Assembly: GCF_003334815.1 (NCBI RefSeq) | Contig: NZ_QOWO01000074.1 | DNA: 5,190 nucleotides | Strand: one strand, 5' to 3' | Source of the DNA: Escherichia coli | Lineage (GTDB): Bacteria > Pseudomonadota > Gammaproteobacteria > Enterobacterales > Enterobacteriaceae | Shown here: positions 1,900 to 5,190 of the stretch, piece by piece | How positions within the stretch are numbered: position 1 is the first letter of the stretch | Layout: each line of letters opens with the position of its first letter | Made by a program: the position numbers and the translations under genes | The notes under the pieces: model-generated | What the model saw: only the letters and a program-made list of their open reading frames with translations | The model's database searches: none | What the model was told of the DNA's origin: nothing

Positions 1900-1919
1900 T
1901 GCTGTATGCATATACAGTA
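1900..1919 (-). promoter_or_regulatory. LexA operator (SOS box) for the impCAB-like operon
   Basis: tgCTGTatgcatatACAGta: perfect CTGT-N8-ACAG palindrome (CTGT 1902..1905, ACAG 1914..1917) with AT-rich spacer and TA flanks, 22 bp upstream of the impC start and abutting the candidate -10. Confidence 0.8.
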
Positions 1920-2022: not shown

Positions 2023-2081
2023 CAGCTTATCCACAGCATTTTGCGCACGGTTCTGTGAATAAAATACCTGGTTACCCAGGC

Positions 2082-2093
2082 CGTGCCGGCACG
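2082..2093. promoter_or_regulatory. Perfect 12-bp palindrome CGTGCCGGCACG (candidate operator or structure)
   Basis: Self-complementary 12-mer in the GC-rich leader upstream of the intron-interrupted gene. No known factor assigned. Confidence 0.25.
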
Positions 2094-2189
2094 TTAACCG
2101 GGCTGCATCCGATGCAAGTGTGTCGCTGTCGCCGGCCTCCTCACCCGGTCACGTTTCGTCGTTCCTCCTCCACGCGCTGCGGCTTCGGG

Positions 2190-2233
2190 GCCGCACCTGC
2201 ATTCGTATGCGGTCGCCCGGTTACAGGTGCGGC
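2190..2233 (+). repeat. Inverted repeat / stem-loop, 10-bp perfect stem (GCCGCACCTG ... CAGGTGCGGC) with 24-nt loop
   Basis: 2190..2199 is the exact reverse complement of 2224..2233. A second small hairpin (ggcct/aggcc, 2236..2250) follows. Both sit in the 5' leader about 40-80 nt upstream of the ATG at 2272; no T-run follows, so not a typical intrinsic terminator. Confidence 0.35.
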
Positions 2234-2271
2234 ACGGCCTGATGGAGGCCGCATGTGAGAGGAGAATTCCC

Positions 2272-2292
2272 ATGCCAAACTGGTGCTCGAAT
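2272..2292 (+). CDS. Host gene exon 1 (7 codons, MPNWCSN) of an intron-interrupted hypothetical protein
   Basis: Strong Shine-Dalgarno GAGAGGAG (2257..2264) 7 nt before ATG at 2272. The 7 codons end exactly at the inferred intron 5' junction and join in frame to the long open frame beginning at 4699. Depends on the inferred intron boundaries. Confidence 0.4.
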
Positions 2293-2900
2293 GTGCGACA
2301 TGAAGTCGTCTGAATAATTGTTCCAGCGGAGTTCGATTCCGTCAGGGAACCTGATGTTCCGTCATCAGTAGCCTACTGACACATGCGTCACTGGTAACGG
2401 TGGGGTGTGAAGCTGTCAGGACAATGAAACCGGATCTTCGGATCGCATGAAACCGTGAGGTTACATGTAATCTGCCAGCATCAGGCGGAGGAGGTCTAGG
2501 CTCGGTAGCATGACTAACATATGTGAACTGCTGAAGCGTCGTTAACCAGAACAAGCCAAAGATGCTGACAGGCTTGAACCAAAAGGTATGTGGTTGGTTA
2601 CTCCTCTGTTTGCTAGGGGTACACGGACAATAAACCACCGGTGTTGTGAGCAGAGTCTAACCTACTGTTGTTATTCAGGTGGAACATGGTAAGCCCGTAT
2701 CGCTGCCTCGTGAGGCAGGTTAACCGCAAGGGATACTGTTGGCGGTGCGGGTAAAAGAAGGTGGAAAAAGCGAATGCCAGTCTGTAATGGACCGGATAAG
2801 GGTTGAGCCCGGCAACATTACCCTACGCGAAAGCGGGCAGACTTCCACTGGGTCTTTCATTACGAGAGAGTTTGAGTAATCTTCCAGAAAGGAAAAGCAG

Positions 2901-4625
2901 ATGACTGAGCAGGCTACAACCTGTAAAGGTGCGTCCTTACTTAACGGTGACTCCTGGCACAGTATCAACTGGCGTCAGTGCTATCGGGAAGTGCGGAGAC
3001 TGCAAGCGCGTATCGTAAAGGCAACACGAGAAGGTAAACATGGCAAGGTCAAATCCTTGCAATGGATACTGACTCACTCGTTTAGTGGCAGAGCAGTTGC
3101 TGTCAGACGAGTTACAGAGAATAGCGGGAAACGTACTCCTGGGGTTGATGGTCAGACATGGTCTTCCCCGGAGGTTAAATTTCTTGCTATTAACCTGCTG
3201 AAACGGCGTGGTTACAAACCACAGCCACTTAAGCGGGTTTATATACCTAAGTCAAATGGGAAGTCTCGTCCCCTTGGGATACCCACTATGAAGGATCGGG
3301 CGATGCAGGCGTTGTATTTGCTGGCTCTTGAGCCCGTTGCTGAAGTCACTGCTGACCAGAGATCCTTCGGCTTTCGGACTGGAAGGTCTACTGCAGATGC
3401 GATAGCACAGTGCTTCTGTGTTCTTGCGCAGAAAACATCCGCTGAATGGGTGCTTGAGGGGGATATACGGGGATGCTTTGACAATATATCTCATCAATGG
3501 CTAATCGATAACACCTCAACAGACAGACAAATCCTGACAAAGTGGCTTAAAGCGGGTTACAGGGAAAATGGGCAGTTATTCCCTGTAAATTCAGGAACTC
3601 CTCAGGGGGGAATAATTTCTCCTGTACTGGCTAACATTGCTCTGGATGGACTGGAGGCGCTTCTTGCGTCGGAGTTTAAAAAGAGAACAGTCAAGGGACG
3701 ATTGGTTAACCCGAAAGTTAACTATGTGAGATATGCTGATGATTTTATTATCACTGGAGAGTCAAAAGAACTTCTTGAGTCTCAGGTATTACCCGTCGTC
3801 AGGCGGTTTATGGCTGAAAGAGGATTAATGCTTTCTCCTGAAAAGACGAAAATCACACATATCGAGGAAGGATTTGATTTTCTTGGACAGAACATTCGCA
3901 AATATGGCGGTAAGATGCTGATCAAACCCTCTAAAGCCAATGTCAGTTCCTTTTTAAAGAAAATACGCGCTGTAATCAAAGGCAACAAAGCTATGGATCA
4001 GCTTACGTTGATCCGCATGCTGAACCCAATGATCAAAGGGTGGGCGGCTTACCATCAACACATTGTGGCCAAGGTCGCATTTAACAAAGTTGACAATGAG
4101 ATCTGGCTGGCTTTATGGCGTTGGGCCGTTCGGCGTCATCCCAATAAGGGAAAGAAGTGGATTCGGAAAAGATATTTCCATCAACAAGGTGCCCGAAACT
4201 GGTCTTTCTCCGTGGCTACCGGAGAACTCCTTGCCAACGGTAAGCCTCAGTATGCAAATCTGAGGAAAGCAATCGATACGCCTATCAACCGGTTTAAACC
4301 GATTAAAATCGCAGCTAATCCGTTCGATCCTCAATGGGAGATGTACTTTGAGGAGCGTTGTGCAGACAAAATGCGGCACAAACTGCAAGGACGGAAAAAG
4401 CTCATTCAAATCTGGTTTGAGCAGCGGGGCCGATGCCCCATATGTGATGAGAGGATTACATCTGATTCCCAGTGGCAGGTTCATCACATCATACGGCGAG
4501 TCGATGGAGGGAGCGACTGCCTCTCCAATTTGATTATGCTGCATCCGATGTGTCACACACTTGTTCATGCGAAAGGTATACATGTAGTGAAACCGGCTCA
4601 TGAGAGTGGGCTTAGAAAGGCTTGA
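2901..4625 (+). CDS. Group II intron-encoded protein: reverse transcriptase / maturase / HNH endonuclease, 574 aa
   Basis: ORF-track protein has RT motifs (RVYIPKSNGKSRPLGIPTMKDR, GCFDNISH, SGTPQGGIISPVLANIAL, VRYADDFII), a maturase X region (MIKGWAAYHQH) and a C-terminal HNH/Cys module (CPICDERI...HHIIRRVDGG...CHTLVH). SD AAGGA 7 nt upstream. Stop overlaps the first bases of domain V. Confidence 0.95.
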   Translation: MTEQATTCKGASLLNGDSWHSINWRQCYREVRRLQARIVKATREGKHGKVKSLQWILTHSFSGRAVAVRRVTENSGKRTPGVDGQTWSSPEVKFLAINLLKRRGYKPQPLKRVYIPKSNGKSRPLGIPTMKDRAMQALYLLALEPVAEVTADQRSFGFRTGRSTADAIAQCFCVLAQKTSAEWVLEGDIRGCFDNISHQWLIDNTSTDRQILTKWLKAGYRENGQLFPVNSGTPQGGIISPVLANIALDGLEALLASEFKKRTVKGRLVNPKVNYVRYADDFIITGESKELLESQVLPVVRRFMAERGLMLSPEKTKITHIEEGFDFLGQNIRKYGGKMLIKPSKANVSSFLKKIRAVIKGNKAMDQLTLIRMLNPMIKGWAAYHQHIVAKVAFNKVDNEIWLALWRWAVRRHPNKGKKWIRKRYFHQQGARNWSFSVATGELLANGKPQYANLRKAIDTPINRFKPIKIAANPFDPQWEMYFEERCADKMRHKLQGRKKLIQIWFEQRGRCPICDERITSDSQWQVHHIIRRVDGGSDCLSNLIMLHPMCHTLVHAKGIHVVKPAHESGLRKA

Positions 4626-4698
4626 GCCGTATGCCGGGAAACTGGCACGTACGGTTCTTAGGGGGCGGTGATGCAGTAATGCATCACTGCTACCCGAT
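4624..4698 (+). ncRNA. Group II intron catalytic domain V and domain VI (branch-point helix) up to the 3' splice site
   Basis: DV: GAGCCGUAUGCCGG-GAAA-CUGGCACGUACGGUUC (4624..4657). DVI: 15-bp helix 4661..4675 / 4680..4695 with GUAA loop and a single unpaired A at 4692, six nt before the ...GAU 3' end. Confidence 0.8.
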
Positions 4699-5190
4699 CG
4701 TATGTATTTTTCTGGTGAACCAGCACAGATCGCTGAGATTAAACGACTGGCCAGCGGTGCAGTCACACCGCTTTATCGCCGCGCCACAAATGAAGGTATT
4801 CAGCTGTTTCTGGCCGGAAGTGCCGGACTTCTGCAGATCACTGAAAATATCCGCTCTGAGCAGTGCCCCGGAGTGACGGCTGCCGGACGTGGTGCTGTAT
4901 CACCGGAAAATATCGCGTTCACCCGCTGGCTGACACACCTGCAGAACGGTGTACTGCTGGATGAGCAAAACTGCCTGATGCTGCATGAACTCTGGCTGCA
5001 GAGCGGTACTGGACAGCGTCGCTGGGAAGAGTTACCGGATGATGTCAGGGAAACTATCACTGTGCATTTCACCGCAAAAAGAGGTGACTGGTGTGACATC
5101 TGGGGTAACGAGGATGTATCGGTGTGGTGGAACCGTCTGTGTGACAACGTACTGCCGGAAAAAACCATGCCGTTTGACCTGCTGACGGTT
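4699..5190 (+). CDS. Host gene exon 2: hypothetical protein of unknown function (partial; continues beyond the window end)
   Basis: Frame beginning at 4699 (CGT ATG TAT ...) is open for 164 codons to the window edge: R-MYFSGEPAQIAEIKRLASGAVTPLYRRATNEGIQLFLAGSAGLL...WWNRLCDNVLPEKTMPFDLLTV. Not in the ORF track because it has no stop in the window. Composition is protein-like. I recognise no family from memory. Confidence 0.55.

Follow-up and report, generated by a model that had tools for sequence, protein, structure and literature searches.

A DUF1281 gene of conjugative plasmids interrupted by the group II intron EcI5 in an Escherichia coli plasmid segment

We analyzed a 5,190-nucleotide (nt) stretch of Escherichia coli DNA (assembly GCF_003334815.1, contig NZ_QOWO01000074.1), referred to here as the window, which is a segment of an IncI/IncK-type plasmid. 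The open frame that reaches the 3′ end of the window is very probably exon 2 of a DUF1281 gene of the conjugative-plasmid backbone, split after codon 7 by the group II intron EcI5 at its natural homing site. This interpretation is the best overall explanation of the evidence presented below. A first-pass annotation, made from the letters of the window alone, had recognized an intron-interrupted gene with more than 170 codons after splicing, but placed its protein in no family and regarded it as the likely cargo of the locus. The split gene is borne out by the comparison with related plasmids. The protein, in contrast, belongs to a catalogued family, and its gene is part of the backbone of about 4,800 enterobacterial plasmids.

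Structure of the interrupted gene

The joining of positions 2272–2292 to positions 4699–5190 produces a 513-nt sequence of 171 codons that is free of stops, and exon 2 is open from its first nucleotide through the end of the window. The predicted junction of the ligated exons reads TGGTGCTCGAAT followed directly by CGTATGTATTTT (...TCGAAT and CGTATG...). The IncI1 plasmid pEK204, which lacks the intron, reads atgccaaactggtgctcgaat followed directly by cgtatgtatttt (cgtatgtat...), in exact agreement with the predicted junction, and its uninterrupted open reading frame (ORF) extends over 308 codons before it ends in a stop. The entire window has 99.9% identity to RCS85_pII, an IncK2/Z plasmid of E. 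coli ECOR 3, which carries the intron and has the 3′ part of the gene intact. The spliced coding sequence of RCS85_pII is the same, base for base, as the uninterrupted gene of pEK204. The missing C-terminus, which the first-pass annotation proposed to retrieve from the source replicon, was recovered from these two plasmids; the full gene comprises 308 codons, of which 137 and the stop fall outside the window.

The ratio of nonsynonymous to synonymous substitution rates (dN/dS) of the gene is 0.22 in comparison with the allele of pO157 (dN 0.04, dS 0.18), and 0.16–0.17 in comparison with a Salmonella allele of 60% identity. Because of these low ratios and the junction preserved in pEK204, the frame of exon 2 represents a real, constrained gene and not a chance ORF. 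It had been anticipated that frameshifted homologs would speak against the existence of the gene. Such homologs do occur in the lineage of the F plasmid, and many truncated alleles of the family exist; however, most alleles are intact and under purifying selection, and the gene is real.

The coding sequence starts at position 2272, and hence the intron does split it. The start is placed there because it is preceded by a Shine-Dalgarno sequence, because it opens the most conserved stretch of the family, and because residues 4–12 form the first strand of the ferredoxin-like domain in the predicted model. F and pO157 share the GGAG of the Shine-Dalgarno sequence, and a Pantoea plasmid retains GAGGAG. 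The N-terminal sequence MPNWC[A/S/C]NR is retained in homologs down to approximately 44% identity and is recognizable in far more distant ones; residues M1, P2, W4, C5, N7, and R8 are invariant across 47 homologs (to 44% identity). In the window, MPNWCSNR arises only through splicing. The coding sequence annotated by RefSeq/PGAP (WP_001739825.1, 300 amino acids (aa)) begins instead at Met9, in pEK204 and in intron-containing plasmids alike. The Met9 ATG is located one codon into exon 2, at position 4702 of the window, and at positions 6004, 8703, and 6410 of the comparison loci L001, L002, and L003, respectively. No Shine-Dalgarno sequence was found in front of this in-frame ATG. Since EcI5 is positioned within the region of codons 1–8, the production of the full-length DUF1281 protein requires splicing. 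The comparison loci used here and below include L002 (RCS85_pII), L003 (pO157), L004 (F, NC_002483), L005 (the Salmonella plasmid), and L007 (the Pantoea plasmid).

The EcI5 intron

The termini of the intron fit the group II pattern, with GUGYG at the 5′ end and AY at the 3′ end. The Rfam model RF02012 (D1–D4) matches positions 2350–2496 with a score of 133 bits, and RF00029 (domains V/VI) matches positions 4622–4698 with 66 bits and ends exactly at the predicted 3′ splice site. The intron ORF contains the Pfam domains RVT_N (E-value 2.7e-32), RVT_1 (2e-45), GIIM (8.9e-24), and HNH (8.9e-10), and is labeled ltrA in the 99.9%-identical plasmid record. Over all 2406 nt, the intron is 99.6% identical to the copies in pO157 plasmids, that of EDL933 included.

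EcI5 belongs to subgroup IIB1, encodes a reverse transcriptase (RT) of the CL1 lineage, has pO157 of E. coli O157:H7 as its natural host, and retrohomes efficiently (PMC8643678). The intron of pO157 (L003 4001–6406) interrupts the same point of the same DUF1281 gene. All five target bases described as critical for EcI5 (C-18, C-17, A-15, A-14, and T+5; PMC8643678) are present in the window, and the intron-encoded protein of 574 aa, with RT, maturase, and HNH domains, is likewise common to both copies. The hosts differ, as the intron of the window resides in an IncK2/Z- or IncI-type conjugative plasmid, whereas that of pO157 resides in an IncF virulence plasmid. A naive scan of intron domain I for complementarity between exon- and intron-binding sites (EBS and IBS) returned many 6-nt candidates, which are ambiguous without the published secondary structure. 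Given that the intron is 99.6% identical to EcI5, the EBS1/EBS2–IBS1/IBS2 pairing with the flanking exon can be presumed.

Approximately 154 plasmids carry at least 80% of the length of the intron, which corresponds to roughly 3% of those with the DUF1281 gene. The intron copies of IncK/IncI and IncF (pO157) plasmids differ by 0.4%, whereas the host alleles differ with a dS of 0.18. Because of this discrepancy, the intron must have moved horizontally between diverged alleles and was not co-inherited with them. Its spread across IncF and IncI/IncK backbones appears as expected for homing into a site set by the conserved N-terminal codons. Both splicing and retrohoming have been published for EcI5, and the empty site of pEK204 and the contrast between 0.4% and a dS of 0.18 lend indirect support to these activities here.

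The DUF1281 protein family

The full-length protein contains the Pfam domains DUF1281 (PF06924; residues 30–206, full model, E-value 1.6e-46) and DUF1281_C (PF18406, "ferredoxin-like domain in Api92-like protein"; residues 209–282, E-value 2.9e-15), and the 171 residues encoded in the window are sufficient for a DUF1281 match with an E-value of 1.4e-32. The homolog in the Protein Data Bank (PDB) is the "hypothetical protein Api92" of Yersinia pseudotuberculosis (2IJR; E-value 3.1e-47). Together with YubA/YubB of the F plasmid and YccB, these matches overturn the view that the protein cannot be placed. Database names for the family are DUF1281, YccB, YfdA, YfaB, and YubB. The first-pass annotation had added that a match to a well-characterized family would remove the novelty of the protein; the novelty is indeed gone because the family is catalogued, but the family itself is uncharacterized.

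The predicted fold consists of a ferredoxin-like domain, built from an N-terminal strand and residues 210–280 approximately, and an all-helical insert of residues 30–205 approximately. The same fold is present in the crystal structure 2IJR. Api92 shares both Pfam domains and retains Cys5, the DFD motif, and HWY-x-E, but lacks Pro2 (its N-terminus is of the MSEWCKNR type). We take the name Api92 to point to a chromosomal pathogenicity island, in contrast to the plasmid leading region considered here. The protein is acidic, with an isoelectric point (pI) of 4.5, 45 Asp and Glu versus 22 Lys and Arg residues, and contains 16 Trp residues. In agreement with the first-pass annotation, it has no recognizable catalytic, nucleotide-binding, or helix-turn-helix motif. 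A catalytic N-terminal Pro or a Cys–His site was rejected as a general feature of the family, as the residues are absent from distant homologs.

Structure searches of AFDB50 and of a viral structure library identified no fold neighbor of known function, and returned only uncharacterized proteins named DUF1281 or "YubB ferredoxin-like". The protein had zero matches in NCBIfam and PADLOC, and its matches in PHROGs are restricted to families of "unknown function". The gene is essentially missing from the phage collection that was searched. A near-perfect match to phrog_37043 and the sole close match in the phage collection were set aside, as both trace to an unannotated record of 1.9 kb, probably of plasmid origin.

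The exact 308-aa sequence, named YccB or DUF1281, occurs on at least 1000 contigs. The DNA of exon 2 is present in 4,786 of 72,556 plasmids, approximately 80% of which are predicted to be conjugative, and the hosts of which are mostly Escherichia, Salmonella, Shigella, and Klebsiella. Among 1.84 billion cluster representatives, a profile search identified 3,919 relatives at E ≤ 1e-3. The genomic contexts of the distant homologs P0183, P0212, and P0249 are uninformative, consisting of series of small ORFs without assignment or of contigs that are very short. P0183 (L009/L010 7001–7987), which derives from metagenomes, is situated in an extended series of such small ORFs that share one orientation, and a Y-family polymerase gene is located nearby in L010; the layout resembles the leading or early region of an unrelated mobile element.

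The F-plasmid copy contains a frameshift that divides it into two ORFs (L004 4811–5362 and 5344–5781). YubA, with 168 aa (183 aa if counted from the first in-frame start), and YubB, with 145 aa (UniProt YUBA_ECOLI and YUBB_ECOLI), are the N- and C-terminal halves of one broken DUF1281 gene. The yubA/yubB locus is orthologous to that of the window, with a 97.8% identical upstream hairpin and the same downstream array of methylase and ArdB genes. It differs in the frameshift and in its upstream neighbor, which is sopAB and not umuDC, whereas the gene of the window is intact but split by the intron.

Position in the plasmid leading region

The DUF1281 gene heads an array of co-oriented genes in six backbones: pEK204, RCS85_pII, pO157, F, the Salmonella plasmid (60% identity), and the Pantoea plasmid (49% identity). 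The array continues with one or more small ORFs, an N6/N4 DNA methylase, YubE, DUF1380, ArdB/KlcA, SSB, a ParB-like protein, PsiB/PsiA, and ArdA, and ends on the side of the origin of transfer (oriT). The DUF1281 gene is the oriT-distal first member of the array and has the orientation for transcription from the transferred strand (T-strand); nikA and oriT are located beyond ArdA. The upstream neighbor is variable, and can be umuDC/DinI, sopAB, or a chemoreceptor gene. Because the upstream neighbor varies while the downstream array is constant, the DUF1281 gene is to be grouped with the array of the leading region rather than with the mutagenesis operon.

The assignment to the leading region agrees with the survey of Samuel et al. 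(Nature 2024, Supplementary Table 1), in which "Uncharacterized; DUF1281" is the leading-region-enriched family 27, with a size of 1949, a false discovery rate (FDR) p = 0, a median ORF position of 22 from oriT, and T-strand orientation.

The mutagenesis operon of the window encodes a DinI-like protein, UmuD, and UmuC on the minus strand, and its promoter is overlapped by a LexA box (Table 1). The first-pass description of the gene as divergent from an SOS-inducible mutagenesis operon is therefore accurate.

A "hypothetical protein" of approximately 100 aa, rich in Arg, is annotated between the DUF1281 and methylase genes (L002 9602–9913; L004 5785–6090; L001 9083–9394). This ORF overlies a G+C-rich fold of about −100 kcal/mol over 390 nt, the presumed region of a class 3 single-stranded DNA (ssDNA) promoter, and may be an annotation artefact and not a gene.

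Table 1 Features of the window, with positions counted from its first nucleotide
Feature	Position	Strand	Details
umuC/impB-like Y-family polymerase gene, 5′ part	1–1200	−	
umuD	1196–1633	−	
DinI-like gene	1630–1878	−	
LexA box	1902–1917		perfect CTGT-N8-ACAG; overlaps the minus-strand operon promoter
Promoter of the DinI-like/umuD/umuC (imp-type) operon	1948–1919	−	TTGACT-18-TAGAAT
G+C-rich structured region	about 2040–2250	+	upstream of the Shine-Dalgarno sequence
Long imperfect hairpin, 165 nt	2077–2241	+	arms 2077–2103 and 2215–2241; candidate ssDNA promoter or replication roadblock
Shine-Dalgarno sequence GAGAGGAG	2257–2264	+	read from the sequence; GGAG 7 nt before the ATG at 2272
Exon 1 of the DUF1281 gene	2272–2292	+	codons 1–7 (MPNWCSN), ATG CCA AAC TGG TGC TCG AAT; 5′ half of the EcI5 homing site
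Group II intron EcI5, full length, 2406 nt	2293–4698	+	starts GTGCG, ends ...CCGAT
Intron-encoded protein (RT/maturase/HNH endonuclease), 574 aa	2901–4625	+	ORF list and Pfam
Exon 2 of the DUF1281 gene	4699–5190	+	codons 8–171; runs off the window end

The hairpin upstream of the gene

The long imperfect hairpin upstream of exon 1 has arms of 27 nt each that are 81% complementary, and its 3′ end is located 30 nt before the ATG. Folded as ssDNA, the minus strand of positions 1960–2275 reaches −73.3 kcal/mol, compared with −54.0 ± 3.4 kcal/mol for shuffled sequences (z = −5.6). Both arms contain the motif CCGTGCC-N6-KTARCCSGRC, for which 200 shuffled versions of the window gave 0 matches. Although ardA had no part in its derivation, the motif is present in both arms of the klcA/ardB and ardA hairpins of pEK204 (4 matches versus 0.06 expected), and also in the Pantoea hairpins located 5′ of the DUF1281, methylase, and ArdB genes. 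The consensus structure common to the hairpin and seven homologs exhibits compensatory changes in 17 of 42 pairs. Counterparts of the hairpin are located at L004 4661–4825 in F and L007 7788–7964 in the Pantoea plasmid. The segment comprising the hairpin and exon 1 (2040–2292) has an identity of 95% or more in 4,676 of 4,826 plasmid records, whereas exon 2 is only 90–95% identical in 3,168 of 4,786 plasmids. The higher conservation of the upstream element than of coding exon 2 suggests that it is a constrained cis-element.

According to Wen et al. (NAR 2025, PMC12672017), the klcA and ardA hairpins of an IncI1 plasmid are "class 2" ssDNA promoters, the starts of which were determined by 5′ rapid amplification of cDNA ends (RACE), and a class 3 promoter, also mapped by 5′ RACE, is placed just upstream of the methylase gene. 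The klcA copy of F (ssp2) is, in addition, a UvrD-resolved roadblock to complementary-strand synthesis (bioRxiv 10.64898/2026.01.09.698686). The hairpin of the window shares with the class 2 promoters (ssp2) the arm motif, several internal blocks, consensus structure, and a similar distance to the start (35 versus 45–46 nt). It differs from them in a central part that is shorter by approximately 60 nt and in a weaker putative −10 element, and the papers examined do not name it as an active promoter. The candidate −35 and −10 elements on the T-strand are TTGCAT-N15-TAACGT, which align with TTGCAT-N15-TAAGAT of klcA and TTGACC-N15-TAACGT of Pantoea; both the spacing and the −10 element are non-canonical. 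A simple consensus scan of the plus strand upstream of the gene found no sigma-70 promoter, which is not proof of absence. The homology of the hairpins argues that the DUF1281 gene would be wired like its early-expressed neighbors.

The Salmonella plasmid has a different arrangement. Its DUF1281 gene is preceded not by a class 2-like hairpin, but by an 85–89% identical copy of the structured segment directly 5′ of the orphan methylase gene, the reported place of the class 3 promoter (L005 7749–8000 compared with L005 9873–10026, L002 9818–9938, L001 9299–9419, and L004 5896–6115). Promoter-hairpin modules seem to have been swapped in front of the DUF1281 gene.

The outer foot of the hairpin coincides with a terminator-like stem on the minus strand (2081–2066), GCCTGGGTAACCAGGT followed by ATTTTATT. 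This stem might halt antisense transcripts that run towards the imp operon, or might be a mere part of the hairpin base.

Function of the DUF1281 protein

We tentatively propose, while giving it somewhat less than an even chance, that the DUF1281 protein is an early-expressed, non-enzymatic establishment or anti-defense factor that acts through binding. The protein would be made early in the recipient cell from the incoming T-strand, and would act by binding or inhibition and not by catalysis. An early role in establishment or anti-defense is suggested because of the T-strand orientation, the enrichment of the family in leading regions, and the resemblance of the upstream hairpin to ssDNA promoters. 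The guarded suggestion of the first-pass annotation that the gene might serve establishment or anti-restriction also agrees with its leading-region position. A binder is preferred over an enzyme because residues invariant among close homologs (C5, H251, D227, and others) are lost in distant full-length homologs, in which P2 and W4 are replaced as well, and because no fold neighbor is enzyme-like; the acidic, Trp-rich composition points the same way. ArdA, ArdB/KlcA, PsiB, and the orphan methylases share with the DUF1281 protein the genomic island, strand, and presumed timing of expression, but have no likeness to it in sequence or fold. ArdA is an acidic DNA mimic, and the DUF1281 protein is acidic too.

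EcI5 could profit from the location of its target, since a gene of the leading region would be expressed right after transfer, which would aid homing into intron-less resident alleles; we regard this as possible but rather unlikely. In a similarly speculative extension, which we consider doubtful, the DUF1281 gene would form an unlisted early (zygotic) transcription unit on the outer margin of the leading region, driven or guarded by an unreported ssp2/class 2 paralog and encoding an establishment or anti-defense factor of new fold, and EcI5 would have chosen its first eight codons for their post-entry expression, from which it invades resident intron-less alleles.

Several observations weigh against the proposed establishment or anti-defense function. 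The protein has no similarity, in sequence or fold, to characterized anti-restriction, anti-CRISPR, or SOS-inhibitor proteins, and Samuel et al. (2024) likewise list the family without sequence or fold similarity to known anti-CRISPR or anti-restriction proteins. Full-text searches of the literature for DUF1281, yubB, yccB, yfaB, and yfdA did not retrieve a functional study. The putative −10 element TAACGT is poorer than the TAAGAT of klcA, and its spacing is 15 nt. Wen et al. (2025, PMC12672017) count only six induced operons, and do not name the DUF1281 gene among them; its hairpin may therefore have weak promoter activity or none. The split YubA/YubB allele is common, with each half found on at least 1000 contigs. 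Since F conjugates well with the frameshifted copy, the DUF1281 gene is not essential for transfer, and it is apparently dispensable for F in the laboratory.

The prevalence of the frameshifted allele in databases also agrees with a different explanation, according to which the gene is functionally dead: the intron after codon 7 would inactivate a dispensable backbone gene, and the open frame would only reflect the recency of the insertion. The numerous truncated alleles fit this explanation, as does the restriction of the intron to approximately 3% of the plasmids (154 versus 4,786), a low share that insertions of recent date and possibly deleterious effect could account for. However, EcI5 is competent in splicing and homing, and its RT/maturase/HNH ORF is intact in the window. 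The exons are 100% identical to the uninterrupted allele of pEK204, dN/dS across the family is about 0.2, and the diverged IncF (pO157) and IncK/IncI alleles that share the intron site all have intact downstream ORFs. We therefore consider a dead gene unlikely. Alternatively, the protein could be an enzyme with an active site formed by Pro2, Cys5, Asn7, Arg8, His103, Asp227, His251, and Glu255 on the ferredoxin-like sheet, such as a Cys/His hydrolase or an N-terminal-Pro catalyst. All eight residues are invariant in the 47 homologs down to 44% identity, Api92 has Cys5 as well as the DFD and HWY-x-E motifs, and the strand order of the model plausibly places these positions on neighboring strands. 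The replacements in distant homologs described above argue for a binder, and an enzymatic function is quite improbable.

In a third explanation, the DUF1281 gene could be a functional partner of the divergent SOS mutagenesis operon, and not of the anti-defense array. The window, pEK204, and the Salmonella and Pantoea plasmids all have a DinI-like gene or umuDC a short distance upstream on the opposite strand (with other genes in between in Pantoea). The UmuC family is itself enriched in leading regions, at position 24 and on the opposite strand. However, F and pO157 have sopAB/sopC upstream of the gene and lack umuDC. The invariant neighbor is the co-oriented methylase–ArdB array downstream. 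The DUF1281 gene is not preceded by a LexA box, as the sole box of the window overlaps the promoter of the minus-strand operon. A partnership with the mutagenesis operon is therefore very improbable.

Implications

The locus is real and correctly delimited, yet already on record: it comprises a catalogued family of domains of unknown function (DUF) with a solved structure and a known niche, and a known intron at its published site. The homology of the hairpin and the annotation errors are the sole additions to the existing record. Annotation of the gene from Met9 leaves out the best-conserved motif of the family and obscures the interruption of the gene by the intron. Should the copy of the hairpin upstream of the DUF1281 gene be active, the four-operon model of the F leading region would gain a fifth unit, and the copy could explain the late conversion of even the oriT-distal loci of the leading region. 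DUF1281 ranks within the 30 largest families enriched in leading regions, and is therefore a reasonable target for screens of anti-defense and establishment functions.

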